This document shows positions 10,766 through 47,207 of a DNA stretch of 64,000 bases, one piece after another (positions within the stretch are counted from its first letter, which is position 1; each line of letters begins with the position of its first letter). Where the stretch lies: the IMG/VR virus record IMGVR_UViG_2639762987_000002. One strand, 5' to 3'. The notes under the pieces are model-generated. The model was not told the origin of the DNA and made no database searches. It was given only the letters and a program-made list of their open reading frames with translations. The position numbers and the translations under genes are program-made. The DNA comes from a virus (Duplodnaviria; Heunggongvirae; Uroviricota; Caudoviricetes).

Positions 10766-10846
10766 TAAGTAAGTACACACCTACAACAAAAGGGTGAAAT
10801 GTGATATAAATCCGCCATCCCGATTTGACTTTTCATGGAGGAAAAC

Positions 10847-11170: not shown

Positions 11171-11183
11171 CAGGAGATCAAGG

Positions 11184-11876: not shown

Positions 11877-11877
11877 T

Positions 11878-12129: not shown

Positions 12130-12286
12130 GACGCAGGCTCCAGGCGTGCTATTCTGCGATGCTGCAAATCCTATTTATGTGAGTAGAGAGGATTTTATGA
12201 CTGAGGAAACGGAGCGACAGTTGCTTATCCACAATACGATAGGTGAAAGGCTGTGTGAGTGGGGGGCACCTGAACTGAGTCGATGA
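12050..12286 (+). CDS. Putative o-spanin (Rz1-like lipoprotein), overlapping the i-spanin gene
   Basis: Alternate frame of ORF 11945-12286; signal peptide MKRLMKCGKKMPLVFIAS with lipobox IASC; start codon uncertain (12041 or 12050). Confidence 0.45.
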   Translation: MKRLMKCGKKMPLVFIASCLINGCVIKTQAPGVLFCDAANPIYVSREDFMTEETERQLLIHNTIGERLCEWGAPELSR

Positions 12287-30407: not shown

Positions 30408-30502
30408 ACAAAACAGCCTTAACGATAAGTAACCACTTACGATAGATAATGATATATTTATATAAGAAGTTGAACGCTCATTAGAAAACAAAGGAAAAAC
30501 GC

Positions 30503-31738: not shown

Positions 31739-31740
31739 TC

Positions 31741-31944
31741 GTGCGTAAAGGATGTTTCGGCTCTCTTATCGCTGCTTCTGAAACTGGTAAGGCTTGTCTG
31801 GTGTGTCCAGACAAGCCCGATTGTCACCAATCAGCAAAAGAAGTTGCGATTTCGATGCATGGGAAGTTCGTAGGCTTCCCCAATGACAAAATCAAAAAAA
31901 CCAGAAAGGTAAAAACACATGAAGGCACTGATGGTTCGAACTGA
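31741..31944 (+). CDS. Hypothetical small Cys-containing protein
   Basis: 67 aa from GTG; overlaps dnaE start; weak. Confidence 0.25.
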   Translation: MRKGCFGSLIAASETGKACLVCPDKPDCHQSAKEVAISMHGKFVGFPNDKIKKTRKVKTHEGTDGSN

Positions 31945-34900
31945 CTTCTCACTTGGGGAGTCGGCTCTAAAAGCAGAAAACGCGGTGAAGATTGCCAGAG
32001 AAGCTGGCTACACCGCTGTAATTTCAGCAGATAGCATGAATATTGCGAGCGTTATTCCACTACAACGTGCCGCTGGTGACGACATGGCGGTTATTTGTGG
32101 TGTGAAACTAAACATTGTTGATGATCCCACATACGAGCACCGGGCTAAACTTGCTAAAGAATCTATGAGATGTATGGAATCATTAGAGCGGGGACGTAAC
32201 TACTCGTTTACCGCTCTAATTAAAAATGAGCAAGGATATCGCGACATCTGCGAACTAATGACGGTGGCCAACACACGAGAACAGTTCTACTTTGTACCGC
32301 GTCTCTCGCTCGAACAGTTGGTTTCTACATATGCCAAAGGCAACATCATCCTGCTCACTTCCGACATCGGTAGCGTGTTCCAACGCAACGATTTTGCAAA
32401 AATCATAAGCTCACTGATTACAGCGGGCGGGAAAGACAACTTCTATAGTGTGGTTTATCCGCACCCTACCCCATTCTACGACCAGATTAACGTCCGAGCG
32501 ATGAAAGTCGCCAGCGCACTGAAAATAGAGCCAGTAGCGTTCTATCCCGCTTATTACGAATCGATCGACGATGCAGACATTAAAGACATTGCGCACATGG
32601 TTACGAACAACATAAAAATCGACCAGCCGCATCGTCTGCGTATCCCCCACCAGCGAGATAACGCCATCAATGGTCGTCGCCATCTCCTTGAGGCGCTTAA
32701 AGCCTTCTCCGTTCGCATGGATGTGCCGGTAACAGCTGCAATGGCCTCAACAACGCAGGACTCCATTATCGATGCCTGCACATGGCGCTGGCATGAATTG
32801 CCACCAGCACTGCCCAAGATGGCAGACGACGAACCTGCAACGCTGATGAAACTGGCTGTTGCAGGGCTGCGTAAACGTCTTACCACAAAAGAGTTTGGAT
32901 ACACACCACCTGCTTCTGAGAACAGGGTTTATGTTGAGCGGCTAAAGTACGAAATGGACACGCTGACTCGCCTGGGATTCTGTGGTTACTTCCTGATGGT
33001 ACGCGATCTGATGAATCACAGCCGTGAAACTGGCATTCCTGTCGGGCCTGGTCGTGGTTCCTCTGCCGGTTCTCTGGTGGCGTGGTGCATAGGCATAACC
33101 AACGTCGACCCAATCCGTCACGGTCTTCTGTTTGAGCGTTTCATCAACCCTGAGCGTCTCGACTTGCCGGATGCGGACTTGGACTTCAGCCAGGCACGTC
33201 GCCATGAGGTGATCGAGTATCTGAATGAACGCTACGGCGAAGATTACGTTGCAGGCATTCCGAACTTCACCTACCTGGGCGCAGCCTCTGCACTACGTGA
33301 CACCGCTCGTATTTATGGTGTGGAGTCCGCAGATATGGCGGTATCAAAAGAACTGAAGAACGTCGAGGATGATAGCCTTCCATTGGAAGAGCTGCGCGAA
33401 CAACTGGCAAGTCTCGACAAATACGCAACAAAATATCCTGATGCATTCAATGCAGCCTGCAAGTTACAAAGCCTTATGCGTGGCTTTGGTAGACATGCGG
33501 CAGGGATGATCGTAGCAGGTGTTCCTCTGACAGAACGTACACCGGTTGAACGCCGTGGTGACGCGCGTTGTATCGCATTTGACAAGCGTTACTGCGAGGC
33601 TATGGGCCTAATTAAGCTGGACGTACTTGGTCTGGCAACTCTCGATTTGCTCGATAGTGCAAAACGCTACATAAAAGAGAACACAGGTGAAGATATCAAT
33701 CTTGATGCCATTTCTCTTGAAGATCGCAAGGTGCTGGATGGTTTTGCTGCTGGGTACACTCAAGGTGTTTTCCAGCTTGAATCAGGCCCAATGCGCAAGC
33801 TGCTTAAAGATTTAGGTGGTGGAATTGAGCCAATGAGCTTTAAAACGGTTGTTGCTACGACTGCGCTCTTCCGGCCGGGGCCAATTCAGTCAGGCATGTT
33901 GGATGACTATGTTTCTGTAGCCAAAGGCTTTATGACGCCGGAATCATTACACCCCGTTCTTGATGAACTTACCGCAGAAACAAATGGCGTGATTCTCTAT
34001 CAGGAACAGACGATGAACGCGACTCGATTGCTTGCTGGCTTCACAATGGCTGAAGCTGACGGCGTTCGTAAAGCGATCGGCAAAAAAGACATGGAAAAAA
34101 TGAAGAGCATGGGCGAGAAGTTCATCGTTCAGGCTCAAGCTGGCTGGATAGACGTTGAGCTGGAAGATGGCACTACACAGCGCATTCACCGTGCGGAACA
34201 TTTTAAATGCGAAGACGGAACTCTGAAAACTGTCGAAGAGGCACTTGAGTACGGCGCAAAACTACCTATAAACGCAGTACGCGTTACAGCGTCACATCCA
34301 GGGCTATCAGAGATGAAAGCGAAGGAGATCTGGACCGCATTCGAAAAGAATGGTGCCTACCAGTTCAACAAATCACACTCTGTTGCTTACTCCTTAATCA
34401 GTTATCAATCTATGTGGTTGAAAACTCATTATCCCGCGGAGTTCTTCGCTGCTGCTCTCACTATTCTTGGCGAAGATAAACACCAGGGGCTGGTTAAAGA
34501 TGCGCTGACCTATGGTATTCGCGTATTGCCACCAGACGTTAACGTGTCATCTAACCGAATCGAGATCCGCACGCTTGAAGATGGCAGCCAGGTGCTGTAT
34601 GCGCCCTTCTCTGCTGTGAAAGGGTGTTCTGAGAATGGCTGCCAAGCCATCATGAGAGCGCGAGAAAAAGTTGGCGGCAAATTCGAGTCACTGGCGCAAT
34701 TCGAAGAAGCTGTCGAGAAACGTGCCTGTAATAGTCGAGTGCGCGAATCACTGCAAAAAGTAGGTGCGTTTGCATCCATCGAGCCAGGTAGTCTGCCAGC
34801 AACTGATCCAGAGCGTCTCCGCGACCAGGCTGAATTGATGGGAAACCTTGTCATAGACGCAGTTAAAGCCTCACGTCCGTTTGAGATGAACCCCAAACGT

Positions 34901-35437
34901 TCGGCTGAGATTAACGTGCTCATGACACGGATGGCGGCTGAAATGGGATTAGGTGATGAACTAATCCGCCCTAGCATTGGCATTAAGCCGAAAATCATGA
35001 TCATTCTGGACAATGCGAACGGCAATGATGCTCGAACCGGTTACTTTATGGAGAACGGATACGACGACTTTAAGGCCAAGCTATTGACGGCTGGAGATTT
35101 ACGCATGGGCGATCTCTATGTCACAGGCGTTTGCAAGAAGGTTAAAGACAAAGAAAAAGACTACACCAAAGACGAGATCGGCCAGTTCACCGACTTTATA
35201 CGAGAAGAGATCAATCTGGTGCGTCCGACCTATGTGCTGACGTGTGGCAGCCGGGCAACGGCATTGTTTAACAACAAAAACAAGCCATCCGATTTGGTCG
35301 GCAGGAAGGAGTACCTTCCAGACCTTGACGTTACTGTCTTTTACGGGTTTAACCCCAACATTCTTTACTTCAGACCTGAAGAGGGAGAACGACTAGAAGC
35401 GATATTAGCCGACGTAGCAGAAACCATTAAGACGTGA
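31919..35437 (+). CDS. dnaE: DNA polymerase III alpha-type replicase (DnaE family)
   Basis: 1172 aa; N-terminal PHP-like region; core motif GIPVGPGRGSSAGSLVAWCIGITNVDPI; start preceded by AAAGGTAAAAACACATG. Confidence 0.85.
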   Translation: MKALMVRTDFSLGESALKAENAVKIAREAGYTAVISADSMNIASVIPLQRAAGDDMAVICGVKLNIVDDPTYEHRAKLAKESMRCMESLERGRNYSFTALIKNEQGYRDICELMTVANTREQFYFVPRLSLEQLVSTYAKGNIILLTSDIGSVFQRNDFAKIISSLITAGGKDNFYSVVYPHPTPFYDQINVRAMKVASALKIEPVAFYPAYYESIDDADIKDIAHMVTNNIKIDQPHRLRIPHQRDNAINGRRHLLEALKAFSVRMDVPVTAAMASTTQDSIIDACTWRWHELPPALPKMADDEPATLMKLAVAGLRKRLTTKEFGYTPPASENRVYVERLKYEMDTLTRLGFCGYFLMVRDLMNHSRETGIPVGPGRGSSAGSLVAWCIGITNVDPIRHGLLFERFINPERLDLPDADLDFSQARRHEVIEYLNERYGEDYVAGIPNFTYLGAASALRDTARIYGVESADMAVSKELKNVEDDSLPLEELREQLASLDKYATKYPDAFNAACKLQSLMRGFGRHAAGMIVAGVPLTERTPVERRGDARCIAFDKRYCEAMGLIKLDVLGLATLDLLDSAKRYIKENTGEDINLDAISLEDRKVLDGFAAGYTQGVFQLESGPMRKLLKDLGGGIEPMSFKTVVATTALFRPGPIQSGMLDDYVSVAKGFMTPESLHPVLDELTAETNGVILYQEQTMNATRLLAGFTMAEADGVRKAIGKKDMEKMKSMGEKFIVQAQAGWIDVELEDGTTQRIHRAEHFKCEDGTLKTVEEALEYGAKLPINAVRVTASHPGLSEMKAKEIWTAFEKNGAYQFNKSHSVAYSLISYQSMWLKTHYPAEFFAAALTILGEDKHQGLVKDALTYGIRVLPPDVNVSSNRIEIRTLEDGSQVLYAPFSAVKGCSENGCQAIMRAREKVGGKFESLAQFEEAVEKRACNSRVRESLQKVGAFASIEPGSLPATDPERLRDQAELMGNLVIDAVKASRPFEMNPKRSAEINVLMTRMAAEMGLGDELIRPSIGIKPKIMIILDNANGNDARTGYFMENGYDDFKAKLLTAGDLRMGDLYVTGVCKKVKDKEKDYTKDEIGQFTDFIREEINLVRPTYVLTCGSRATALFNNKNKPSDLVGRKEYLPDLDVTVFYGFNPNILYFRPEEGERLEAILADVAETIKT

Positions 35438-35444
35438 TCCCATA

Positions 35445-35469
35445 AACATGGCCTCTATGGCCATGTTTT
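35445..35469 (+). terminator. Rho-independent terminator
   Basis: AACATGGCC-tctat-GGCCATGTT hairpin followed by T-run. Confidence 0.7.
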
Positions 35470-35562
35470 CCCTTATCCCCTCATATCCCCTATCCTCGAA
35501 CTCCTTGCCTTATCATCACAATGATATAATCAATATAAAATGATAAGTAAAAAGGAAAGCAC

Positions 35563-35994
35563 ATGATCACCGATATTTACGAGAAAATAATGTCTGATCT
35601 CGAGTTTGACCGAGACAATCTGGAGGAAGTCTGGCGTAGACAACCCCGCCTTTTAATGGAGTATGGCTCAAAACTCGCTCATGCAGAAAGAAGTGTCGCA
35701 GAGGCAAAACTTAACCTTGAAGCTGTTGAAGCAAAGCTATACGACACAGAGCGTAAGAACTTGAGTATGAACGGCATTAAGTTCAACGAGTCTGTACTGG
35801 ACGCTAAGGTTAAAACAAACCCACAGTATCTGTCTAAACGGCAGAAGTTGGATGAAGCACGGCACATCGCAGACATATACAAACATGCTGTCGCCGCCTT
35901 TTCGCATCGCCGAGACATGATCGTTCAGGCGTCAAAGATGGCCATCGTTGAATTAGAGCGATTAGGCTCTGAACGCTTTATTACTCCCCGTTGA
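35563..35994 (+). CDS. Hypothetical protein (coiled-coil)
   Basis: 143 aa; start context AAAAGGAAAGCACATG. Confidence 0.5.
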   Translation: MITDIYEKIMSDLEFDRDNLEEVWRRQPRLLMEYGSKLAHAERSVAEAKLNLEAVEAKLYDTERKNLSMNGIKFNESVLDAKVKTNPQYLSKRQKLDEARHIADIYKHAVAAFSHRRDMIVQASKMAIVELERLGSERFITPR

Positions 35995-36111
35995 TTTTTG
36001 ATAGATAATAAGTAAGTACTGATCTATCATTTAACAGCTCGAAAGAGCCACGAATGAACGAAAGCCCAACGCGCATAGCGCCATCGGCCAAATCACAACA
36101 AGGAGAAACAC

Positions 36112-37140
36112 ATGTCTAAGACATTACTTGATTTGCTTAACAAAACTCGTGAAGACATTGCCGCCAAACGTGGTAACAACGTTGATCTGACTCGCTTAAA
36201 AGACGGCGTCAACTATATCCGCATCTTCCCGAATAAAGACGACCCAAACGGTAAGTTCTTCCAGACTTTCGGTATGCACTACGTTAAGTATCAGAACGAG
36301 GAAGGTAAAGAAGCAACCAACGCTTATATTTGTGAGCAACATACTCACGGTCGCGCTTGTCAGCTATGCGAAATGGTGATGGAAGGTCGCGCTCGTCACA
36401 AGGGTAACAAAGCAATGGAAGAACGCATCGGTCAAATGCGTGCCACTCCTCGCTACCTGGTCAACGGCATTCTTTCTGCTCGTGAGGATTTCGCAGATGC
36501 TGAGAAATGCCAGTTAATCGAGCTGCCGTCTACTGTATTCGATGATATCTGCAAAGCAATCACCGAAGACATCGCTGATGATATCGGCAATCCACTGAGC
36601 AAAGAGGAAGGCTACGCATTCCTGATTAAACGTACTGGCTCTGGTCGCGATACCAAATATGACGTCTCGCCTAAGCGTAAAGTCTACAAAGGCGATATCG
36701 AAGATAAATTCTGGAATACCCAGCATGATCTGATCGCATACGCAAATCAGGCTGATGAAACTCGTCTTCTGTCGACAGTTCGCACTATGGGTCGTCTGAT
36801 TGGCATCGCTGCACCAACTGCCGCAGCATCTGCACCAGCAATTTCCTCAACCGCGAAAACATCGGCTGCGGCACTACCTGGATTTGGCTCTGTCACTGGT
36901 CATACAGAAGGAGCGACGGCTGTAGCAACCGCGCACACACCGGCTTCTGAACCAACCAGTCTGGTTGATGAAGAAATCCTCCGTGCCGTTGAAACTGAAT
37001 TTAAACCAGAGGCAAGTTCCGCTGCCGTTGCTGTATCAGTCAAAGAGTCTGAAGCAGTCGCAGCGACATCTGTAGCAACCGCATCTGCGACGGAAGATGA
37101 AGGTCTGGATGACCTACTGAGAGAGCTGGACTCTCTGTAA
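36112..37140 (+). CDS. Single-stranded DNA-binding protein (gp32-like)
   Basis: 342 aa; Cys/His cluster CEQHTHGRACQLCEM; Ala/Ser-rich linker; acidic C-terminal tail EDEGLDDLLRELDSL. Confidence 0.5.
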   Translation: MSKTLLDLLNKTREDIAAKRGNNVDLTRLKDGVNYIRIFPNKDDPNGKFFQTFGMHYVKYQNEEGKEATNAYICEQHTHGRACQLCEMVMEGRARHKGNKAMEERIGQMRATPRYLVNGILSAREDFADAEKCQLIELPSTVFDDICKAITEDIADDIGNPLSKEEGYAFLIKRTGSGRDTKYDVSPKRKVYKGDIEDKFWNTQHDLIAYANQADETRLLSTVRTMGRLIGIAAPTAAASAPAISSTAKTSAAALPGFGSVTGHTEGATAVATAHTPASEPTSLVDEEILRAVETEFKPEASSAAVAVSVKESEAVAATSVATASATEDEGLDDLLRELDSL

Positions 37141-37156
37141 TCCCATTACGTGACCA

Positions 37157-37185
37157 GTAAGGCGTCTACGGACGCCTTACTTTTT
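37157..37185 (+). terminator. Rho-independent terminator
   Basis: GTAAGGCGTC-TACG-GACGCCTTAC followed by TTTTT; lies inside the ORF-track 5' extension of the next gene. Confidence 0.8.
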
Positions 37186-37200
37186 GGAAGGAATGTACCG

Positions 37201-38145
37201 GTGAATTATCTCTTCGTAGATGGCAATAGCCTGGGTTATTACCACCAACAATCTGACAAATTGCACAACGGCGAAATGGAAGTACAGGCTGCTTTCGGCT
37301 TTGTTAAGAACGTCCGTCGTTATGCCTCCATCCTCCATGCCCGACCTATGATTCTTTGGGATGGATTTAGTGACAAGCGTCGCGACTTTTACCCGGACTA
37401 CAAAGCAAATCGCGACGACGATCCTGATATGAAAAAGATGAAGGAAGGCTTTGCTATCCAGAAGCCATACATCCTCAAAATGATGACCGCGCTTGGTGTT
37501 AACCAAATCATTGCAAAAGATGCAGAAGCGGATGATCTGGCCGGGCTGCTGGTATCCCGCATGGCACCGCAGCCAACCGTTGAACACATCTATCTGTTAA
37601 CAGGCGATAGCGACTGGCTTCAGTTAGTTCGCGAAAACGTAAGCTGGGTAAGCCTGCGTGAAGACGCCAAAAACAAGCAGGTTAATTTTGAGCAATTTGC
37701 GGAGCTGACAGGATTCGCCACGCCTCGCGCATTTTTGGAAGCAAAAGCATTACAAGGCGATAACTCGGACAACATTAGCGGTGTTGGTGGCATTGGTGCT
37801 GGCGGTGCGAAAGAGCTGCTGCATGAATGGGGAAGTGTCGCAACGATGGTACGCGGCATCAACGACGGCTCAATCGTGGTTAATAAAGGGCGTCATAAGA
37901 CCGCCTTCAACAAACTAGCGAAGAATGCCTTCAACGAGAAAACAGGCTGTCGAATGCTCGAAGCGTTCAAGAGAAACATCACGCTAATGAACCTGATTGA
38001 GACGAAGTTTCCGCCTACCGAAATCGAAACAATCAAAGGCAATCGTGACGTGAAAGCATTCGAGCAACTGTGCTACGAGCTGAATTTCCGTTCGTTCCTT
38101 GAAGACCTTGAAGTGTTTGTTCTTCCATTCGAAAGGTATTGCTAA
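37201..38145 (+). CDS. 5'-3' exonuclease / flap endonuclease (PIN-like)
   Basis: N-terminal YLFVDGNSLGYY as in Pol I-type 5' nucleases; GDSDWLQLV; start set at GTG 37201 after RBS GGAAGG because the ORF-track start 37150 overlaps the terminator. Confidence 0.7.
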   Translation: MNYLFVDGNSLGYYHQQSDKLHNGEMEVQAAFGFVKNVRRYASILHARPMILWDGFSDKRRDFYPDYKANRDDDPDMKKMKEGFAIQKPYILKMMTALGVNQIIAKDAEADDLAGLLVSRMAPQPTVEHIYLLTGDSDWLQLVRENVSWVSLREDAKNKQVNFEQFAELTGFATPRAFLEAKALQGDNSDNISGVGGIGAGGAKELLHEWGSVATMVRGINDGSIVVNKGRHKTAFNKLAKNAFNEKTGCRMLEAFKRNITLMNLIETKFPPTEIETIKGNRDVKAFEQLCYELNFRSFLEDLEVFVLPFERYC

Positions 38146-38411
38146 TGCTTAAATCGATTATCAATGGCGCTACAACCACCCCTGCCCAACTGGCAAAAGA
38201 GATTGTCTTTTATCACGGTGAGTACGCTGTCATCGCACTGCCGTCAATTCTAGGCGCTGCCGGAATGAAAGCGACAGATCGCGAGTTTGGATTAGTCAGC
38301 GAGCAGGTCGTAAAAATCCTCGCTCGTGTATCCAGACTCCTTAACCACGATGCGATTGTATTCGACGAATCCGCCGCTTTAAAACGAATCAACGAAACAA
38401 AAGGAGCCTGA
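38145..38411 (+). CDS. Hypothetical small protein
   Basis: ATG 38145 overlaps upstream stop (TAATG); ORF track begins TTG 38139. Confidence 0.4.
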   Translation: MLKSIINGATTTPAQLAKEIVFYHGEYAVIALPSILGAAGMKATDREFGLVSEQVVKILARVSRLLNHDAIVFDESAALKRINETKGA

Positions 38412-38413
38412 TC

Positions 38414-39487
38414 ATGGCAAAAGGAAAATCCGCACTGGCACTTGCTCTGAAAAAGAAAATCGGTAGCAACGACGAAATTCAGAAAGTAACTCATTGGATT
38501 GATACAGGCTTTCCACCGTTAAACAAAGCTATTTCTGGTCGTTACGATGGCGGCTTCCCATGTGGTCGTATCGTCGAAGTATTCGGTCCTCCAAGTGCAG
38601 GGAAAACGTTCCTTGCAACAGCAGCGATGATCTCCGCTCAAAAACAAGATGGTCTGGCGGTATTCCTCGATCATGAAAACAGTTTTGACGTTGGTCTGGC
38701 TGTAGCCAATGGCCTGAACGCAGATGAGGATGACGGTCAGTGGGTATACAAGCAGCCTGATACCTTCGAAGACTCTGTAGAGTTGATCGGCACAATTCTT
38801 AAATTGGTACGTGATGAAGAGCTTATTCCTGAATCAGCACCTATCTGTATCGTGGCTGACTCACTTGCGTCTATGGTTCCGAACTCCAAAGCCGAGAAGT
38901 TCGAAAAGATGGCTGAAGGCACTGCCAAAGACAAAGATCAGCTAAACATGAACGACAATACGGCACTGGCTCGTGCGACAAGTGCGAACTTCCCTACTCT
39001 GGCTTTGTGGGCACGCAAATACAACGCCTGCATCATCTTCTTGAATCAGGTTCGCACAAAAATCGGTGTAATGTTTGGCGACCCTACTACGTCGCCAGGT
39101 GGAGATTCACCGAAGTTCTACGCTTCTGTACGTATCCGTCTTGGTGCATCGGTGATGAAGGATGGTAAAGAGAAGATCGGCCAGGACGTAGGCGCAGAAT
39201 GCATCAAAAATAAAGTTGCACCACCGTATGGCAAATGCACCTGGAAATTCTACTTCGATCCTACTCGTGGCCTCGACGTTATCGAATCGCTCGTCGAGTA
39301 CATGCTGGAAGAAGGATACCTGCCAAAGAACGCCAGCGGGCGAGTTGAAATTGGTGACAAGAAATACACCAAATCGCAGATCGTCGAGATGTATCGGGAG
39401 AAGCCACTGGCTGAAATCATTGCGGCTTTGCAGGCAATCGACGACCGAAGAGCAAAAGACAACCCCACCGAGTCAGTAGAAGAGTAA
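38414..39487 (+). CDS. RecA-family recombinase
   Basis: 357 aa; Walker A VFGPPSAGKTFLA; RBS AAAGGAG. Confidence 0.65.
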   Translation: MAKGKSALALALKKKIGSNDEIQKVTHWIDTGFPPLNKAISGRYDGGFPCGRIVEVFGPPSAGKTFLATAAMISAQKQDGLAVFLDHENSFDVGLAVANGLNADEDDGQWVYKQPDTFEDSVELIGTILKLVRDEELIPESAPICIVADSLASMVPNSKAEKFEKMAEGTAKDKDQLNMNDNTALARATSANFPTLALWARKYNACIIFLNQVRTKIGVMFGDPTTSPGGDSPKFYASVRIRLGASVMKDGKEKIGQDVGAECIKNKVAPPYGKCTWKFYFDPTRGLDVIESLVEYMLEEGYLPKNASGRVEIGDKKYTKSQIVEMYREKPLAEIIAALQAIDDRRAKDNPTESVEE

Positions 39488-39493
39488 ACACAA

Positions 39494-39516
39494 GGCGTCC
39501 ACAGGACGCCTTTTTT
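39494..39516 (+). terminator. Rho-independent terminator
   Basis: GGCGTCC-ACA-GGACGCC followed by TTTTTT. Confidence 0.8.
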
Positions 39517-39521
39517 ATCTC

Positions 39522-39550
39522 TTGAAAATATATAAGTACTTACTTATTAT
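39522..39550 (+). promoter_or_regulatory. Sigma70-like promoter with palindrome ATAAGTACTTACTTAT in the spacer
   Basis: TTGAAA (39522-39527), 17-nt spacer, TATTAT (39545-39550); spacer carries the dispersed palindrome family. Confidence 0.5.
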
Positions 39551-39579
39551 TTTCGCATAACAACCACATAGGAAAACAC

Positions 39580-39780
39580 ATGATCAAAATCTATCTATTG
39601 GCAGTAGCCACAGGCCTTTCAGTGGCTCTCATCTACGGTTTACTGGTTCCGTCGCTGATTTCTACCAAGAGTGATTTAGCCGTCATGTTTGGAGTTATCG
39701 TTGGTTTTGGTGCTCCTGTAATCGGTCTTATTGCTGGTCGTAAGTTTATCAACTCATTAATCAAAGCAAAGGGGAAATAA
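39580..39780 (+). CDS. Small membrane protein
   Basis: 66 aa; two hydrophobic helices; immediately upstream of SPFH lipoprotein gene. Confidence 0.5.
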   Translation: MIKIYLLAVATGLSVALIYGLLVPSLISTKSDLAVMFGVIVGFGAPVIGLIAGRKFINSLIKAKGK

Positions 39781-39783
39781 GTA

Positions 39784-40614
39784 ATGAAGAAAGGTTTACT
39801 TGCAGTTGCTCTGGCGGCTATTTGCACAATGGGTCTTACTGGCTGTGATCGCGTGGAGCCTGGATACGTTGGCATCAAAGTAAACAAATTAGGTGAAGAC
39901 AAAGGGATCGGTGAAGTGGTTGGCGTTGGTCGCCAATGGACAGGTCTTAACACCGAACTTTACGTATTCCCGACCTTCAAACAAATGAAGACCTACGACG
40001 AACCGTTCACATTCCAGATGAGTGACGGTACTGCTATTGGTCACAAAATTGGCGTTGCGTATCTGGTTAATCGTGACAAGGTAACGACGGTGTTCCAGAC
40101 CTATCGCAAAGGCGTAGACGATATCACCGAATCAGATCTGCGTCAGAAAATTGCCGACTCTCTAAACCGTTTGGCCAGCCGTATGACCACTGACTCATTT
40201 ATCGACGGTGGTAAGGCGCAATTGCTGGACAACGCACTGAAAGACATTCAGAAAGAGATGTCTCCGGTTGGTATTGAGGTACTGAGCCTGTCATGGGTTG
40301 GAAAGCCTGATTACCCAAAAACCGTCATTGAATCTATCAACGCCAAAGTAACGGCTAACCAGCGTACTCTGCAACGTCAGCAGGAAGTTGAACAGCGTAA
40401 AGCTGAGGCGAATATGCTACGTGAACAGGCTAATGGTGAAGCTGATGCTATCCGTGCTCGTGCGCAAGCAGAAGCCGACGCCATTCGTCTGCGCGGTGAA
40501 GCTCTGCGTCAAAACCCGAACGTTATGGAGCTGGAAGCCATCAATAAATGGAATGGCCAGTTACCGCAGTACATGACTCAAGGGGCTAACACTCCTTTCA
40601 TTACAGTGAAATAA
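39784..40614 (+). CDS. SPFH/band-7 domain lipoprotein
   Basis: 276 aa; lipoprotein signal MKKGLLAVALAAICTMGLTGC; C-terminal EAEANMLREQANGEADAIRARAQAEAD coiled coil typical of HflK/C-like proteins. Confidence 0.55.
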   Translation: MKKGLLAVALAAICTMGLTGCDRVEPGYVGIKVNKLGEDKGIGEVVGVGRQWTGLNTELYVFPTFKQMKTYDEPFTFQMSDGTAIGHKIGVAYLVNRDKVTTVFQTYRKGVDDITESDLRQKIADSLNRLASRMTTDSFIDGGKAQLLDNALKDIQKEMSPVGIEVLSLSWVGKPDYPKTVIESINAKVTANQRTLQRQQEVEQRKAEANMLREQANGEADAIRARAQAEADAIRLRGEALRQNPNVMELEAINKWNGQLPQYMTQGANTPFITVK

Positions 40615-40632
40615 CTCTCATTAAGAAGATCA

Positions 40633-40656
40633 GGCGTCCAGTTGGACGCCGTTTTA
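40633..40656 (+). terminator. Rho-independent terminator
   Basis: GGCGTCC-agtt-GGACGCC followed by GTTTTATT. Confidence 0.7.
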
Positions 40657-40680
40657 TTCTCGTTATTATCACACACAAGA

Positions 40681-40693
40681 AAACAATTTGTTA
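40681..40693. promoter_or_regulatory. Palindrome AAACAAtTTGTTa upstream of gene 40710
   Basis: Member of the AAACAA-N-TTGTTT family. Confidence 0.4.
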
Positions 40694-40709
40694 AAAGGTT
40701 AAGTTAATT

Positions 40710-41534
40710 ATGCCCAACCACATTACAAACGAAATCCGAGTCATAGGTGGTACAAATAAACAACGCTTAGATTTCATACGTGCCATAACTAACAAAAAAG
40801 GTCTAATTGACTTTAATACCATTTGCAGACGTCCGAAAAGTATAGAAATGGAAGAAAACAATCATATCAGGCGCATGGCCTCTGCAATGGCGGGCGAAAC
40901 AGTTTACGACCACATGTTCGGTGAATTAAAGACTCCAGAACAGGTCGAATTAGCTATGCGTGAATCAGGAATGACACGCAAGGAAATTCGCAAAATCAAA
41001 GAGCAGGCTCTTATGCGGCTTGAGAATTATCGTCGCTATGGCTATTACTCATGGTTTGACTGGTCGCGAGCTAATTGGGGAACAAAATGGAATGCCTACA
41101 ACATCGAAATGCCCGTAAAACGTATCCCTACACGTATTAAGTACGGCCATAATTTCCGCCATACACACGTTCGAGCATATGCAAAAAGAATCTATAAAAA
41201 ACGTCTTGCAAGACATGCCGCAACTGGTGGTGAGTTGGTGATTCGCTTTGAAACAGCCTGGTCTATGCCAAAACCAATTTATCAAGCGATGGCTAGAAAG
41301 TTCCCGCACCTTGAGTTTGTAATACGTTATGCAGACGAAGACTTCGGCAATAACTGCGGATTCATTTTACTTCGCAACGGCAAATGGGAATATGACTACA
41401 TTGCACCGGCGAATAACAAACAATCGTCAGAAGAAAAAATCAAATGGCGCAAGTTCGCCTTTGAGTTATGTTGTCCTGGTATCACTCCACAAGAATACGG
41501 TCTAAATGAAGAATACGAATACGCCGGATATTAA
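40710..41534 (+). CDS. Hypothetical protein
   Basis: 274 aa; Trp-rich motif YSWFDWSRANWGTKWNAYNIE; basic. Confidence 0.5.
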   Translation: MPNHITNEIRVIGGTNKQRLDFIRAITNKKGLIDFNTICRRPKSIEMEENNHIRRMASAMAGETVYDHMFGELKTPEQVELAMRESGMTRKEIRKIKEQALMRLENYRRYGYYSWFDWSRANWGTKWNAYNIEMPVKRIPTRIKYGHNFRHTHVRAYAKRIYKKRLARHAATGGELVIRFETAWSMPKPIYQAMARKFPHLEFVIRYADEDFGNNCGFILLRNGKWEYDYIAPANNKQSSEEKIKWRKFAFELCCPGITPQEYGLNEEYEYAGY

Positions 41535-41581
41535 AAAAAATTGTCATTTAGCTTTACGCATGAAGCATAGAGGTTAATAAG

Positions 41582-42322
41582 ATGAAAAGAAAAATTGAAG
41601 AACCAAAAACGACCCTTAATAAACATGGGGAAAAAATTCAAACACATCCAGCGTTCGGTCTTGTGAAAACAAGCCGTGTTAGCACAACTGGCATTCGCCT
41701 ATTTGATTCAGAACTGGAACATAGAGACTATATTGAAATAGGCGTTTACGAGGCGGAACTGTCCTTAGACAATGAACGAACCCGCCCACAAAGAAGTTGC
41801 AATAGACGGCCTTTAGTTGAAATTAGACTTAGCCAGGCACAATGGGCTGCTATGGTTAGCAGTTTTGGAGTGGGCGAAGGTGTGCCATGCACTATTTCAT
41901 ATAAAACCATTGGAGACTCAATTAGAGTTCATGATATTGCCGAGCAAAAAAGTATTCGGCAAAAATTCAACGATCAAATAAAGGCCGCTACGAATAGTGA
42001 GATTGATCGACTTAATCAGCAAGTTTCAGAGCTAGGTGAACTTGTGAAAAAAGGAAGAGCTGGAAAACGTGACCTTGAAGAACTATATAGAAAACTAGCA
42101 TCTGCTGTAGCTAACCTTCCTGAAAATCTGTGCTTTGCTACCGAATTAATGCAGGAACAAATGGATGAAATTGTCTCATCTGGAAAGGCGGAGATTGAGG
42201 CGTATGTTGCGGGCACGGTTATGCGTAAAGGGTTAGCAGCATTAGGCACAGAATCATGCATTAACGATGATCCTACTGTCTCTATCACCAAAATGGAAAG
42301 CGGTAAAGAATTACTGCCATAA
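41582..42322 (+). CDS. Hypothetical protein (coiled-coil)
   Basis: 246 aa; RBS GAGG. Confidence 0.5.
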   Translation: MKRKIEEPKTTLNKHGEKIQTHPAFGLVKTSRVSTTGIRLFDSELEHRDYIEIGVYEAELSLDNERTRPQRSCNRRPLVEIRLSQAQWAAMVSSFGVGEGVPCTISYKTIGDSIRVHDIAEQKSIRQKFNDQIKAATNSEIDRLNQQVSELGELVKKGRAGKRDLEELYRKLASAVANLPENLCFATELMQEQMDEIVSSGKAEIEAYVAGTVMRKGLAALGTESCINDDPTVSITKMESGKELLP

Positions 42323-42342
42323 ATGCATCTGAGGTACTGACA

Positions 42343-42732
42343 ATGCTTTTAATTCAACCTGGGTTCGGTTTAAAGATAAAAAAAGGGCATATGTTTGGTG
42401 AGCGAGATTCCAAACGAAAAATTCTGTCTATTCGATTACCATTTATCACCATTCATTGGTTAAACAGAGAGTCAACCGATTATTGGTATAAATGCGCAAG
42501 AGCAGCATTTAACGACCCTGACTGGTTTGTAGAAAATCACCACGCGGTTCGTCAGGCAAAAAGAAAGGCTAATACGACATATATGAAGGCATATCAGGAT
42601 GCCTGGGAAGAACATCGTGGCCGATACCAAAAAAACATTGAAAAACTTGAATCAGAAAATATGGACCTAAGAAGAAAACTCGGTGAAGCACGTCGAGACA
42701 TCGAAGCATATAAACGTCTTGTATCGGAGTGA
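42343..42732 (+). CDS. Hypothetical protein
   Basis: 129 aa; basic, C-terminal coiled coil. Confidence 0.45.
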   Translation: MLLIQPGFGLKIKKGHMFGERDSKRKILSIRLPFITIHWLNRESTDYWYKCARAAFNDPDWFVENHHAVRQAKRKANTTYMKAYQDAWEEHRGRYQKNIEKLESENMDLRRKLGEARRDIEAYKRLVSE

Positions 42733-42793
42733 ATATATCTTTGCTTTATTTTTTCAAAGGTGATTATTTTCCTATTTATAAGGAGAAGTAAAC

Positions 42794-43219
42794 ATGGCAG
42801 CAATTAAGAAACTCTACGATGCCGCAAACGCGGCTCTGGATGTTATTGATGATGAAGTATCAAAAGGCTTTCCTGAACCTGATTGGGCGCATCAGCTACG
42901 AAACGCTATCGCCGAAATGAATCCACCAGATCCGACCACCGACGAGACAGACTGGCAGCGATTTATCCGTATGTACGCTCAGGAAATAGGTCCAACGCCA
43001 ACGGCAGAGCAAGCAATGCTGCTGAAATACTTCAAAGAGGCGGGAGAGGATTTACCAATTGATGACTCAGCATATTGGTTCCACTGCGCATGGCGTAAGT
43101 ATGACGTGATATTCACACAAGGCATGGGGAGCAAAGATATGGTTGTGTGGCATCTACTCCATATAGACACAGCCGTTGACAGAGTTATTGAACAGTTTTT
43201 CCCTAAACAAGAAGATTGA
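42794..43219 (+). CDS. Hypothetical protein
   Basis: 141 aa; RBS AAGGAG. Confidence 0.5.
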   Translation: MAAIKKLYDAANAALDVIDDEVSKGFPEPDWAHQLRNAIAEMNPPDPTTDETDWQRFIRMYAQEIGPTPTAEQAMLLKYFKEAGEDLPIDDSAYWFHCAWRKYDVIFTQGMGSKDMVVWHLLHIDTAVDRVIEQFFPKQED

Positions 43220-43274
43220 TCGCCTATTCATAACTAACAAAATAAGTAAACACTAACCACAAAAGGAAAAACAC

Positions 43275-43550
43275 ATGAGAGTTTTAGTTCGAATCGTTAC
43301 CAGCACTGTCTATGACGTGTTTCCGCTTTTTATGGTCAAAGCCGATGGCCTTAACGACGAAGAAACTGACGCACTGATCCAGCGTATTCTCGTTGAATAT
43401 ACAGGTCATGACGCTGATTCAGTGATGGTTGATGATGATGGTGTTTGTTGGCATAACGGCAACTGTTGGTACGTAGAAGAGACTCAACAAATCAGTGATG
43501 AAGATGCCGCACATCTTGAGCGTATTTTAAGCATCAGCACTTTTGAGTGA
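43275..43550 (+). CDS. Hypothetical acidic small protein
   Basis: 91 aa; start context AAAAGGAAAAACACATG. Confidence 0.5.
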   Translation: MRVLVRIVTSTVYDVFPLFMVKADGLNDEETDALIQRILVEYTGHDADSVMVDDDGVCWHNGNCWYVEETQQISDEDAAHLERILSISTFE

Positions 43551-43765
43551 GTTTACAGTAAAGTTTATATAAGTTAGTATCTACCTATCATGAAGATTTT
43601 TATTGAATACTTGTTACTCATCGTTTCAATAGCTTTTGTCATCGACTGCATTTTCACTGGTGTCATTCGTAAAGTCTTTTCCCCGGTGCACGACGTAGTC
43701 ATAAACGCTTTGGCTATCGTGCTCGTATTTAATTCAGCATTTGATGTAATCAAAGAGGTGGCAGC

Positions 43766-44101
43766 ATGAAGACCATCCCATTCGCGCTGTTGTTTCTTTC
43801 TTCGATCGTTGTGGCTGACACCACTGTTTATCAGTGTGAAATGTCTGTAGCCGACGTTAAGAATGGCGCTCTTACCGACGTCATAAAAGCACCATATGGA
43901 GCGATGGTCGTAGACAGCGGCGACCAGTTCTATGTTGTGCGTGACGATCGAGTGTTGTCATCCCCATATCTCACAAATCGTAATGGCAAATTAACCGGCG
44001 TCGGAGAAGACCACTTCGTATACAACAAATACAAGGGCTTCTATGGCGTTCACGCTTCTCAGCAAAGCTACCTTTTCGATGACTGCAAGGAGGTTGGGTA
44101 A
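43766..44101 (+). CDS. Secreted small protein (signal peptide)
   Basis: 111 aa; N-terminal MKTIPFALLFLSSIVVA signal; RBS AGAGGTGG. Confidence 0.5.
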   Translation: MKTIPFALLFLSSIVVADTTVYQCEMSVADVKNGALTDVIKAPYGAMVVDSGDQFYVVRDDRVLSSPYLTNRNGKLTGVGEDHFVYNKYKGFYGVHASQQSYLFDDCKEVG

Positions 44102-44313
44102 TGGCATTAACACTGGCAGGTCTGGAAATCGAGAAAACAAGCGGCTACTGGCGTGCTAAGGGTTTCAAGCAGCCTGGCATTCTTGAGCGTCTGGAACGTG
44201 AAGATGGGTATATCGTCCACCAGCGGCGTGAATGGCGTATGTACGATCCAGAAACAGGAAAACTGACTACAAAAGCCGGAACACTTTGGGGTCTGTTGAA
44301 GAAAATACACTAA
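44101..44313 (+). CDS. Hypothetical small protein
   Basis: 70 aa; start overlaps upstream stop (TAATG). Confidence 0.45.
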   Translation: MALTLAGLEIEKTSGYWRAKGFKQPGILERLEREDGYIVHQRREWRMYDPETGKLTTKAGTLWGLLKKIH

Positions 44314-44360
44314 ATGCAAACTGACTGCGGCTCGTTCCGCAGTCATATTTCATAGTCGTC

Positions 44361-44893
44361 ACCGCTGACAGCATACACAATCAACTACCGCTGATAGCAT
44401 ATCGAGAGTCTATCTCACCGCTCACAGCATACTTTACTCGATTTTTTACCGCTGACAGCATACTTAAGAAATTGCATGAATAATGTGTCCCGGTATGGGT
44501 ATAACCAGAACAAAATTACCGCTGGCAGCATACGAATGTCTGACATATACCATTAATTACCGCTGATAGCATATCCAAACAAAAATTCCTCAATAAAACA
44601 CCGCTGACAGCATACGTTCTATCAGGGAGTAGCAGGCAATAAATGCCTTTCACTACAAGCAATCAGCGCAATAGCAATAGAATGTTAGTGAGCGCAAACC
44701 TATATGGAATGCACTCTTCGAGGTTAGTAACCACTGGGGAGGTATGACAGAGCATTGAGTGGTGATAGATGATTTACCGCTCACAGCATACGTTCATCTC
44801 ACTATACCGCTGGTAGCATATCTTTAACCGTTCACAGCATACTTTTCAGAAAAATAGCCGCTGATAGCATACATTTCACCGCTGACAGCATAT
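44361..44893 (+). repeat. Iteron array downstream of rep gene (12 direct repeats, consensus ACCGCTGACAGCATAC)
   Basis: Copies begin at 44361, 44387, 44417, 44448, 44518, 44559, 44600, 44776, 44806, 44827, 44857, 44878; all same orientation, irregular spacing 21-70 bp. Confidence 0.85.
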
Positions 44894-45987
44894 CAAAGCA
44901 GTTTGAGACTATTGGAAAGGATCTCAATCATCTTGATATTTTCAGGCGTCAAATTCTGCGAAAGTTCGGTTATCTTGTTGATAATGTTCTGTTTGGCATC
45001 AATTTCCCCAGCTTTCTCATCTGGTTTTTTGGGTTCGATGTCTTCAGGTTTTGGCGGTGCGACTTTGAGTTTTGGATTGCGGCTGTGAATCTGGATATAG
45101 ATCGACCGCCCACGCTTAATCTCGCTGTATTCGAGATAGCCCAAATCTTGGAGAGCTTTTAAGCCGTTACGTATAGTCTGATTCTGCGAGCTGACATTCC
45201 TGCTACTCAAATTGAGTCGCGCACGCAATCGAGCAAGCGATACCGGCGCAGGCTTGGTTGGAAGACTTTCGATGAAGGTGTACAGAGCCTGTGCTGTTTC
45301 TTTGCGTGGTAGCTTATTGATAACCTTTAACTGCAAAAGAACCTTATGGTCAAAGCGATATAGCTCGGCCAGCTTCGGTTCTGCATAGAACACCACCGTA
45401 TCTTTCTGCTCGTTGTAGTCCACGCTATTGATGAGGTGCACCATCAGAAGCGAGATCTTGTTAGAGCCGTCGACGTTCTTTTCTTCATACGTTCTCTGGA
45501 AAGACAGAGTTGTACGCATGATCTTCAAAAGACTGTTTGTAAGCCGGTCGCGGAGTGTTTTGCGGATCTGTGACGATGGATAGCCACAAAACTTAGCAAA
45601 TTTCGTGATGCTTAACTCGACACGACCGTTAGGTTCGCCGTATTCTGCCAGCGAACGCACAACGCCCACCCACGTTTTGAAATCATGATCCATGTCGAGA
45701 CGAGGACCGGTTATCTTGATATCGGAATAGCCTTCAGAACGGGCTACTTCGAGCTGGACAAGCTCCTTTGAAGCATCGATCTCATTTGGCTTGTTACGTT
45801 TACTGTATTTTGTTCCCTTAAGCGTGGGGACGAACAACCCCAGTCGCATCAACGCAATTGGTTGGACTGTATTGTTGCTATTAGGGACAAGTTCCCCTGT
45901 GTACAATTCAAGGGAACCTTCTTCAAAGTTGTCGATGTTATCTTCTACTTCTTTGTTATTTTTACCTTTTTTATTTTTTGTGGACAT
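44893..45987 (-). CDS. repA: Iteron-binding plasmid-type replication initiator (RepA-like)
   Basis: Minus strand, 364 aa from ATG at 45987 with RBS AAAGG (ORF track extends to 46107 across iterons); flanked on both sides by iterons. Confidence 0.6.
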   Translation of the reverse strand: MSTKNKKGKNNKEVEDNIDNFEEGSLELYTGELVPNSNNTVQPIALMRLGLFVPTLKGTKYSKRNKPNEIDASKELVQLEVARSEGYSDIKITGPRLDMDHDFKTWVGVVRSLAEYGEPNGRVELSITKFAKFCGYPSSQIRKTLRDRLTNSLLKIMRTTLSFQRTYEEKNVDGSNKISLLMVHLINSVDYNEQKDTVVFYAEPKLAELYRFDHKVLLQLKVINKLPRKETAQALYTFIESLPTKPAPVSLARLRARLNLSSRNVSSQNQTIRNGLKALQDLGYLEYSEIKRGRSIYIQIHSRNPKLKVAPPKPEDIEPKKPDEKAGEIDAKQNIINKITELSQNLTPENIKMIEILSNSLKLL

Positions 45988-46007
45988 GTGGACACCTTTG
46001 TCATTCA

Positions 46008-46109
46008 ACCGCTGACAGCATACTTGATTTGCCGCTGACAGAATACCAAAAACAGTTGGCAGCATACGGTGAACCGCTGACAGACTATCAATTACCGCTG
46101 ACAGCATAC
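46008..46109 (+). repeat. Origin-proximal iterons upstream of rep gene (5 copies, about 21-bp periodicity)
   Basis: Copies at 46008, 46031, 46052 (degenerate), 46073, 46094. Confidence 0.8.
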
Positions 46110-46149
46110 ATGAACATGACTTCAGACCAGGCGTGGCGCGGCTTACAGC

Positions 46150-46222
46150 GATCGGGGATCTTATTTGATCTATATAAGGATCTGTCTATGGATCTCTTTA
46201 TTAGGATCTATCCTGTGGATAT
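46150..46222. promoter_or_regulatory. Origin-like region: six clustered GATC sites and a DnaA-box-like TGTGGATAT
   Basis: GATC at 46150, 46157, 46168, 46180, 46191, 46205, four inside (A/T)GGATCT heptamers; TGTGGATAT at 46214-46222 is 8/9 to the DnaA box. Confidence 0.6.
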
Positions 46223-46308
46223 GTGAATAATTAAAACAGGCATTTACTACCTTCGGCGCACCTGGTGGGTTATCGTTGCCTCGGCTAACAATCACAGAAA
46301 AATGACAT

Positions 46309-46953
46309 ATGGATCTAAAACGCACGCGCTGGGTTCGTCGTCTTGAAGACGGCTCCTACACTATCGAATCAAATTCCAACCTGAATAAGCAGAAGTTGCT
46401 TTGTGACATCTGCGGTATAGCGGCGAAGTGCCCGATCTACGAAACCAGAATTAAACTTGATAAGGCTGGTGTGAATTTTCATTTAAACAGTTGCATCAGG
46501 TACGTTCCATTACTCGCATTTCGTAAACCGATCATCGGATTGGATGCTCCCTACTTCAACACACTCCGTTCAGGTGTGACGTGGCGAGATCGTTTATCAC
46601 CAGACAAGCTGATTTGCCTCGTATCCGCAGACACAGGGAAAATCATCCGTTTTGGGAAAGTAGACAAGGTTTACTCAGGCCCAGTAGACGAAATGTTGCG
46701 GAAACACAGCCGGTTTAATCATCTCTGTATGGGTGGTGAGAAAATCGAGAAGGTAGAAGAAGTGATCCGCAAATCCTACGGACACTTTCTGACCAAAGAT
46801 AGCCTGCTCACCGCAATCTACATCAAACATGTAAAACGTGAGTTCGACCTCGAATACCACAGCGAAGAAGAGCTTAACCTTGTTGACCCACGTCCAAAAG
46901 CTGGCGTCATAAGCATAAACGCAGCGCGTAAAAAGCCCACTGACGCGCTGTAA
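46309..46953 (+). CDS. Hypothetical protein
   Basis: 214 aa; several Cys; no motif recognised. Confidence 0.5.
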   Translation: MDLKRTRWVRRLEDGSYTIESNSNLNKQKLLCDICGIAAKCPIYETRIKLDKAGVNFHLNSCIRYVPLLAFRKPIIGLDAPYFNTLRSGVTWRDRLSPDKLICLVSADTGKIIRFGKVDKVYSGPVDEMLRKHSRFNHLCMGGEKIEKVEEVIRKSYGHFLTKDSLLTAIYIKHVKREFDLEYHSEEELNLVDPRPKAGVISINAARKKPTDAL

Positions 46954-47207
46954 CCCTCCAGATCGTATATTGGCGTAGATAGAATCTACGCCTCCTCAAA
47001 ATAGCTCTCATAGCGTTCTACAGTGATTCTGTCTTATTTTTAGTCATATAGACAAGCAAACTTGCGCCACAATAAATAGGTATATACTTACTTATAAATT
47101 TTGTATATTAAGGCGCTCGTTTCATTCCTAACATACCGTTATGCATAGTTGTTTACCTCATCATTGCTCTTAGAATTTGTATCAAAATAACCACAAAGGA
47201 AAAATAC

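Follow-up and report, generated by a model that had tools for sequence, protein, structure and literature searches.

Why does a bacteriophage encode a protein of the SPFH/Band 7 superfamily, and with what does this protein work? To our knowledge, no role has been established for an SPFH cage encoded by a phage. According to a 2026 paper on an N4-like phage, why an SPFH lipoprotein sits in a phage genome 'remains unclear' (PMC13239085). We addressed the question using a gene found in a 64,000-nucleotide stretch of DNA from a virus of the Caudoviricetes (IMG/VR record IMGVR_UViG_2639762987_000002; the whole stretch is termed the window). The gene is directly preceded by a small open reading frame (ORF):

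39580-39780, + strand: small membrane partner ORF (ATG start, 66 amino acids)
39784-40614, + strand: SPFH/Band-7 lipoprotein precursor ORF (ATG start, 276 amino acids)

Both ORFs are real, far beyond what chance would produce. They share one reading frame and only TAA GTA lies between them, so that a single stop codon, and hence one mutation, separates them from a fused gene. At a probability that we put at roughly 60%, the two genes are a moron-type cassette whose products build an SPFH ring or cage that faces the periplasm from the inner membrane and in which the small protein is the membrane-spanning partner.

The larger gene encodes an SPFH lipoprotein

The 276-amino acid protein belongs to the SPFH/Band 7 superfamily by sequence as well as by fold. 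It matches the whole Pfam Band_7 model (PF01145) over residues 23-209 with an E value of 2.6e-30 and a score of 106.2 bits, compared to a gathering cut-off of 23.6, and it matches PHROG 200 ('lipoprotein') with an E value of 3e-108. A single-chain AlphaFold2 model, built on a family alignment of 50 diverse homologues with identities down to 30%, has a mean predicted local distance difference test score (pLDDT) of 91 and shows an SPFH alpha/beta domain followed by a long helix, a short helix and a tail. In a Foldseek comparison with the PDB, HflC/HflK (7VHQ) come out on top with an E value of about 1e-14; erlin, prohibitin and stomatin fit the model about as well (E about 1e-14), and the match probability is 1.00 also for these three, flotillin, QmcA and the major vault protein. 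A sequence-only reading of the window had described an SPFH lipoprotein with an HflK/C-like coiled coil, and had named the lack of an SPFH fold as the observation that would speak against it. The model contains both the fold and, at residues 179-243, the coiled-coil helix. The protein has the following features:

Residues 1-20: signal peptide (lipoprotein signal)
Residues ~21-176: SPFH domain (AlphaFold2 model)
Residues 179-243: long coiled-coil helix of 65 residues (AlphaFold2 model)
Residues 245-254: short helix (AlphaFold2 model)
C-terminal tail: K-W-N-G-x-L-P ... P-F, conserved, of low model confidence
39844-39849, + strand: codons of Cys21 (predicted lipidation site) and Asp22 (position +2), read from the sequence

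The N-terminus has the order that defines a lipoprotein signal, in which MKK is followed by the hydrophobic stretch GLLAVALAAICTMG and by the lipobox LTG-C21. Aspartate occupies position +2 in 90 of the 95 close homologues with a detected lipobox, and in the window protein an arginine follows at +3. In E. coli, Asp at +2 is the signal by which lipoproteins are retained in the inner membrane (Lol avoidance). By this rule, the SPFH protein is predicted to stay in the inner membrane. At least some of the homologues from Sutterella (loci L265-L268, most clearly L266) appear without the lipobox cysteine and keep an uncleaved N-terminal hydrophobic helix, and thus the type of anchor seems to vary within the family. 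These Sutterella genes still have a two-helix partner upstream.

Residues C21, G49, G163 and W256 are invariant in the family alignment. In the tail, the conserved residues W256, G258 and P261 are poorly modelled in the single chain, and this combination of conservation and low single-chain confidence would fit an interface between subunits. The ORF is under purifying selection, with a ratio of nonsynonymous to synonymous substitution rates (dN/dS) of 0.03-0.06, a value obtained with synonymous sites near saturation compared to the homologues.

The closest well-characterized proteins are E. coli HflK and HflC (PDB 7VHQ, 7WI3, 9CZ2). They share with the window protein the SPFH fold, the long coiled-coil helix and a conserved C-terminal segment, and their SPFH domains face the periplasm from the inner membrane, as is predicted for the phage protein. 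Moreover, they provide its best NCBIfam and PDB sequence matches in addition to the top Foldseek matches. However, the identity is about 17%, and the scores of 18.7 bits for the NCBIfam hflK model (TIGR01933) and 30.2 bits for hflC (TIGR01932) lie far below the equivalog cut-offs of 159.4 and 134.4, respectively. Where HflK/C are anchored by an N-terminal membrane helix, the window protein has a lipobox signal peptide and thus a predicted N-terminal lipid. Where HflK/C are a pair of paralogues, the unit in the window has one SPFH gene, and its neighbour is a dedicated 66-amino acid protein outside the SPFH superfamily. Low equivalog scores, lipid anchor and single gene together indicate that the protein is neither HflK nor HflC. 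It is, in addition, phage-borne and accessory, and a tie to FtsH would be one of family resemblance.

A small membrane protein is co-inherited with the SPFH lipoprotein

The 66-amino acid partner has two hydrophobic helices (residues ~4-24 and 33-53, from hydropathy) and a basic C-terminal tail. The positive-inside rule predicts a hairpin with both ends in the cytoplasm. The protein matches PHROG 1130 ('membrane protein', E 2e-25), and it has no match in Pfam, NCBIfam, PADLOC or a profile search of the PDB. An alignment of partner sequences reveals the motif P24-x-x-x-S28 (VPSLIS in the window), in which P24 is invariant and S28 is conserved in at least 90%; it lies at the predicted periplasmic (outer) end of helix 1. 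The dN/dS of 0.11-0.22 indicates purifying selection, again with the synonymous sites of the homologues near saturation. An NfeD-like partner was considered and rejected, since none of 17 partner homologues matches NfeD (PF01957) in Pfam and the profile search of the PDB returned noise only.

Using a partner profile, we found that 236 of the 247 loci that were fetched have a partner homologue immediately ahead of the SPFH gene. Counted by lineage, 13 of 16 clusters (at least 85% identity) show the upstream partner, and inspection revealed it in a 14th. The spacing between the two genes usually ranges from a 20-nucleotide overlap to a 5-nucleotide gap. Loci with the pair include N4/Jura (gp19-gp20), PVP-SE1 (116/118), TL (gp10/gp12), P88 (gp11/gp12), phiP27 and P1-like phages as well as genomes of Sutterella, Dyella and Luteibacter. 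One small gene is inserted between partner and SPFH genes in PVP-SE1 and TL. The small gene of phiP27 (L002, 4756-4944) is unannotated.

Exceptions to the pairing include one truncated contig and decayed copies. In a Symbiopectobacterium endosymbiont (L263, 4849-5153) both genes are truncated, and the copy is a pseudogene. The copy in a chromosomal prophage of Shigella/E. coli (L258, 4440-5000, Shigella flexneri) has no partner ORF upstream of the SPFH gene; the ORFs at this place are presumably of the IS1 type, as judged by eye.

The two proteins also occur as one. About 18 of the 150 best representative homologues are in-frame fusions encoded by a single ORF of 320-390 amino acids, in the order partner, signal-peptide-like helix with lipobox, and SPFH domain. 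The N-terminal domains of these fusions align with free-standing partners. One fusion is found on a phage-like contig, where it adjoins recombination genes. The model of the natural fusion P0157 shows confident helices (pLDDT 90), and among the viral contigs searched no locus related to P0157 was found. Taken together, the fusions, the close spacing of the genes and their joint inheritance in unrelated types of phage provide strong evidence for a common task of the two products.

The pair forms a cassette that is present or absent in close relatives

The sequence-only reading had placed a small two-helix membrane protein and the SPFH gene in a terminator-bounded unit. This description is confirmed by scans for ORFs and terminators, and a promoter-like site can be added to it:

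39492-39512 (stem motif 39494-39510), + strand: upstream terminator-like hairpin, AAGGCGTCC-ACA-GGACGCCTT and then a T run (terminator scan)
39522-39550, + strand: sigma-70-like promoter, TTGAAA, 17-nucleotide spacer, TATTAT (10 of 12 consensus matches)
40633-40650, + strand: downstream terminator-like hairpin, GGCGTCC-AGTT-GGACGCC and then a T-rich tail; right copy of the repeat (terminator scan)

The upstream hairpin, which terminates a recA-like gene, represents the left-hand copy of the repeat that flanks the cassette. The promoter-like site, which lies between this hairpin and the first ATG, has the joint-best score in a scan of 18 kb (30000-48000), in which a minus-strand site at 40694-40665 also scores 10 of 12. 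Phage Cyrano keeps the -35 element of the predicted promoter, and its -10 element is TATCAT. Shine-Dalgarno-like sequences precede the small ORF (AGGA, 39570-39573) and serve the SPFH ORF (AGGGGA, 39770-39775). On paper, the two ORFs, the promoter-like site and the flanking terminators thus make up a self-contained transcription unit.

The identity of the window to 'Escherichia phage CMS-2020a' is 99.6%, and that to PhiR41_1 and Cyrano is 93-95%. The annotation of Cyrano lists lambda-like tail genes, ParA, RepA, DnaE, CobT/CobS-like genes, an integrase and a repressor, a gene content that indicates a phage-plasmid of the SSU5/pHCM2 type. The window comes from an SSU5-like E. coli phage-plasmid with a length of about 108 kb. 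In Cyrano, the pair is labelled 'membrane protein' and 'Stomatin-like integral membrane protein'.

In many related plasmids, the shared sequence covers the recA-like gene and ends at the upstream hairpin. Plasmid A of E. coli D4, whose flank is 97% identical, has a single hairpin between the recA-like and DUF7238 genes and no cassette. In an alignment of the junctions, this empty site consists of the left flank of the window through the hairpin, joined to the right flank of Cyrano; filled sites consist of hairpin, promoter, two genes and hairpin. The 7-bp stem motif GGCGTCC-N3-6-GGACGCC occurs in the 64 kb only at the two flanks of the cassette (0 expected). One hairpin at the empty site and two at filled sites would be consistent with recombination between the hairpins as the way in which the cassette is gained or lost. 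A promoter-like site of its own, terminators, insertion between conserved genes and variable presence among close relatives are the classic arrangement of a moron, here with expression as a prediction from these signals.

Three further genes (window 40710-42732, + strand) lie between the cassette and the DUF7238 gene (42794-43219). They encode a 274-amino acid DUF1281_C/Api92-like protein, a 246-amino acid coiled-coil protein (PHROG 6452) and a 129-amino acid protein. Since they are absent from Cyrano and D4 plasmid A, they represent extra cargo in the same hotspot. The 274- and 246-amino acid proteins, the two that were scanned, have no PADLOC match. At the equivalent site after the recA-like gene, plasmid p2_020019 of Klebsiella variicola (L253, 5824-7413) encodes a 529-amino acid protein with a match to the PADLOC candidate defence family HEC-07 (E 3e-30) and an NsnC-like region at its C-terminus. 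These arrangements suggest that the site after the recA-like gene may be a hotspot for defence and accessory genes in SSU5-like phage-plasmids.

The gene preceding the cassette (window 38414-39487, + strand) encodes a recA/UvsX-like recombinase of 357 amino acids. Its counterparts in Cyrano (L001, 5656-7995) and D4 plasmid A (L252, 4415-6754) have 779 amino acids and are labelled 'LAGLIDADG family homing endonuclease', and other relatives label theirs 'intein-containing recombinase RecA'. The window recombinase matches the 779-position PHROG 9666 in two stretches, which together with the difference in length indicates that some close relatives have an intein and others lack it. Elsewhere in the window (9916-10524, + strand), a 202-amino acid 'membrane associated protein' (PHROG 425, moron/host takeover) is encoded between the tail-fibre and lysis genes and may be another accessory membrane gene.

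Distribution, position and annotation of the family

The SPFH protein is found by tblastn in 413 of 50,697 phage records, which, along with the near-identity of the window to phage CMS-2020a, bears out the earlier claim that it is phage-borne. Temperate phages and phage-plasmids that have it include phiP27, Stx2 phages, the P2-like phage P88, and the P1-like RCS47 and its relatives. Strictly virulent carriers are N4-like, PVP-SE1/rV5-like and LUZ24-like phages as well as Felix-O1-like Erwinia phages. Further tblastn matches are to phiCbK, Lak megaphages and a crAss-like phage. When 1.84 billion representative proteins were searched exhaustively, 2816 matched with E values below 1e-3, 195 of them below 1e-30, and most matches are lipoproteins of about 280 amino acids.

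Among complete E. coli genomes, 373 of 5426 (about 7%) carry the SPFH protein. The 195 full-length matches in E. coli correspond to 195 plasmid-borne places, and six among the matches listed are on plasmids of ~100-115 kb. In Yersinia pestis, plasmids of about 95-108 kb bear the pair beside genes for a recombinase and a 5'-3' exonuclease; the SPFH protein of strain NCTC5923 (L257, a 108-kb contig) is 94% identical to that of the window, and the flank is matched in plasmid records H115-H117 at about 80% nucleotide identity. The RefSeq product name is already 'SPFH domain-containing protein'. The gene is thus common and annotated, and is not a discovery in itself.

The position of the pair is known for several phage types. 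It is found among the early or middle genes in N4-, LUZ24- and rV5-like phages. In the N4-like phage Jura, where it is annotated gp19/gp20 by match to N4 reference proteins, it sits just after the RNAP2 genes and is bounded by annotated terminators. A 70,153-bp IMG/VR contig encodes a gp20 that is 100% identical. In phiP27 and the Stx phages, the pair is part of the leftward early operon next to xis/int; in phiP27 the neighbours recognized by Pfam are a CI-like repressor (HTH and Peptidase_S24) and two DUF families, which fixes the orientation of the operon. No match to the CIII family was found among the phiP27 proteins scanned with Pfam. The P1-like phages RCS47, Ro157c2YLVW and 813R1 and records labelled P1 (L049, 4000-8600) have the pair between a tRNA gene and a DnaB-like helicase gene, at the spot where classic P1, P7 and SJ46 carry tciA/tciB/tciC instead.

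Product names in GenBank can mislead: entries for phiP27, Stx phages, P88 and LUZ24-like phages use 'putative serine protease', 'SPFH serine protease', 'putative transposase' or 'transposase fusion protein'. The term 'protease' probably goes back to the name 'membrane protease subunit (HflC)'.

Comparison with other SPFH systems

The nearest relatives of the window pair are N4 gp19/gp20, PHROG 1130 and PHROG 200, phiP27 L05, P88 gp11/gp12, PVP-SE1 116/118 and TL gp10/gp12, all of which belong to the same family. The N4-type gp20 is 65% identical to the window SPFH protein, and the N4-type pair has the same P-x-x-x-S motif in the partner and the same gene order. It differs in that the window pair is a present/absent cassette beside a recA-like gene in a temperate phage-plasmid.

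In their organization, the two genes resemble the SPFH-NfeD operons (QmcA-YbbJ, PDB 8Z5G; YqiK-YqiJ; FloT-YuaF of B. subtilis; the archaeal stomatin-STOPP), in which an SPFH scaffold is combined with a small membrane partner and, in some lineages, fused to it. QmcA is matched by the window model with a Foldseek E value of 1e-7. However, the window partner has only two membrane helices and is without an OB-fold/NfeD domain. Moreover, QmcA and YqiK face the cytoplasm, whereas the window protein is predicted to be exported and lipidated.

A further relative may be PM0222 (Pmorf0222), a prophage protein of Pasteurella multocida. It is described as HflK/C-like, has a mass of 25-35 kDa, stimulates TLR1/2, as expected of a triacylated lipoprotein, and is reported in outer-membrane vesicles and to affect virulence (PMC9872710).

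A proposed split SPFH cage on the inner membrane

If the cassette makes a periplasm-facing cage, its assembly might proceed as follows. The 276-amino acid product would be exported and, as the lipobox predicts, lipidated at Cys21. Asp22 would, by the sorting rule, keep it in the inner membrane, with SPFH domain, coiled-coil helix and tail facing the periplasm. All SPFH assemblies of known structure that the model matches (HflK/C-FtsH, prohibitin, erlin, stomatin, flotillin and QmcA-YbbJ) are membrane cages. Judging by its fold, the phage protein may likewise oligomerise into a ring or cage that fences a membrane patch, and the conserved C-terminal tail may, by analogy within the family, serve as the cap between subunits. 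The partner would insert as a hairpin with both ends cytoplasmic and would hold its P-x-x-x-S motif at the periplasmic membrane surface, where it could contact the N-terminus of the lipid-anchored SPFH protein just above. It might thereby supply the membrane-spanning 'fence' or anchor that HflK/C subunits have in their own chain, and the two proteins together would amount to a split HflK/C-like subunit. The idea gains support from the natural fusions, in which partner, signal-like helix and SPFH domain form one chain. The caged patch would trap or shield a component of the inner membrane, either early in infection or in the carrier cell.

Several observations weigh against the cage model or parts of it. 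phiCbK has no recognisable partner, and at +2, the position on which the rule-based prediction of inner-membrane retention depends, distant homologues carry Ser, Thr or Gly. The 'fence' role is deduced from topology and conservation. The tie to FtsH is a family resemblance, with the hflK and hflC models far below their cut-offs. No PADLOC model matches, and a dN/dS of 0.03 is unusual for a gene in an arms race. The full-text literature, as far as it was searched, yielded mainly genome annotations and no study on what the family does in phages. Finally, PM0222, a possible relative, has been reported from outer-membrane vesicles (PMC9872710).

What the cage would act on

One possible, if tentative, role for the pair is to sequester or modulate host FtsH-type proteolysis. 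As a mimic of HflK/C, the phage cage would enclose host FtsH, or compete for it, at the periplasmic face of the inner membrane, and the altered degradation of CII-like regulators, membrane proteins and LpxC would bias the choice between lysis and lysogeny or affect host physiology. Among the SPFH proteins that have been characterised, the majority act as scaffolds for membrane proteases of the FtsH family or other kinds, and CII of lambda is under the control of HflK/C-FtsH. HflC and HflK are among the best sequence and fold matches of the window protein, its predicted periplasmic SPFH topology is that of HflK/C, and the early operon of phiP27 and the Stx phages places the pair by xis/int. Modulation of host membrane proteolysis, which the sequence-only reading had put forward, is plausible, judging by the family. 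However, strictly virulent phages, which make no lysogeny decision, have the pair as well, and this weighs against a role specific to lysogeny. The NCBIfam scores (hflC 30 against 134, hflK 19 against 159) also argue against mimicry, as do the single lipid-anchored product in place of an HflK/HflC heteromer and the about equal fit of the model to erlin, prohibitin and stomatin. Moreover, the dedicated partner is a more obvious client than FtsH.

It is also conceivable, at a similarly tentative level, that the pair guards the envelope against other phages. Expressed from a promoter of its own in carrier cells and in early lytic infection, it would block genome entry, or an attack on the membrane by other phages or colicins, at the inner membrane. 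The exclusion proteins Imm and Sp of T4, SieA of P22 and Llp of T5 are early membrane proteins or lipoproteins. The moron architecture with presence and absence between close relatives fits such superinfection exclusion, and so do the early or middle position of the pair in N4-, LUZ24- and rV5-like phages and the HEC-07-like defence candidate at the same site in the Klebsiella relative. The same is true of the P1-like phages, in which the pair stands where tciABC, annotated as tellurite/colicin resistance, is otherwise found. On the other side, we know of no precedent for an SPFH protein in exclusion. A defence identity by PADLOC-DB v2 was rejected, as no family matched either protein at E values up to 1. 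Furthermore, the very strong purifying selection and the spread over phages of many phyla suggest a generic role, as opposed to one specific to phages. A combined version, in which the pair shared by N4-, rV5-, LUZ24-, P1-, P2-, Stx- and SSU5-like phages makes an early, split HflK/C-like cage that either captures a host component such as FtsH or seals the membrane against phage DNA, strikes us as doubtful.

Rather unlikely is a role in general membrane stabilisation or lysis timing. Here, the cage would, together with its partner, lend stability to the inner membrane of the infected cell or keep a pore-former in check, with the partner acting like a holin or antiholin, and would thus delay premature lysis or counter depolarising abortive-infection effectors. 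Bacterial SPFH/flotillin proteins have been connected with stress and with the fluidity of membranes, and a long delay of lysis is a known trait of N4. The partner resembles class II holins in size, in its two helices and in its basic C-terminal tail, and two partner sequences match a holin Pfam family with an E value of 0.044, although matches of this kind are at noise level. Against this role, the window has a separate cassette of holin-like, endolysin and spanin genes at 10835-12286, about 27 kb from the pair, which itself belongs to the early or middle genes of other phages. For these reasons, the suggestion of the sequence-only reading that the pair could affect lysis timing is disfavoured. 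In addition, the cassette is missing from otherwise intact close relatives and is therefore not part of the core lysis programme. We consider it likewise unlikely that the role is something else than these three.

An identity as serine protease or transposase fusion protein, as the GenBank product names have it, is highly improbable and was rejected, since Pfam and NCBIfam detect Band_7 and no protease or transposase domain, and the entire chain is modelled as SPFH domain and coiled coil. The identity of the pair as a two-component spanin or a holin was rejected too, given the lysis cassette elsewhere in the window, the Asp at +2, the 276-amino acid SPFH fold and the two-helix partner. Thus, the window protein is not a protease, a spanin or a holin.

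Implications for phage biology

What our analysis adds to an already annotated gene is its linkage to the partner, the natural fusions, the clean insertion and deletion of the cassette and the equivalence to N4 gp19/gp20. Partner linkage, relatives with and without the cassette, and the N4 gp19/gp20 model make the family easy to study in the laboratory; owing to the clean insertion or deletion, such relatives exist already. SPFH cages are also of current interest in structural biology, as recent structures of HflK/C, prohibitin, erlin, stomatin and flotillin illustrate. If the pair controls FtsH, phage entry or membrane integrity, this would explain a widespread phage gene; otherwise it would be a routine accessory gene. 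The combined version, in which an early cage shared by many phage lineages captures a host component or seals the membrane, would, if correct, represent a new and general mode by which phages control the host envelope.

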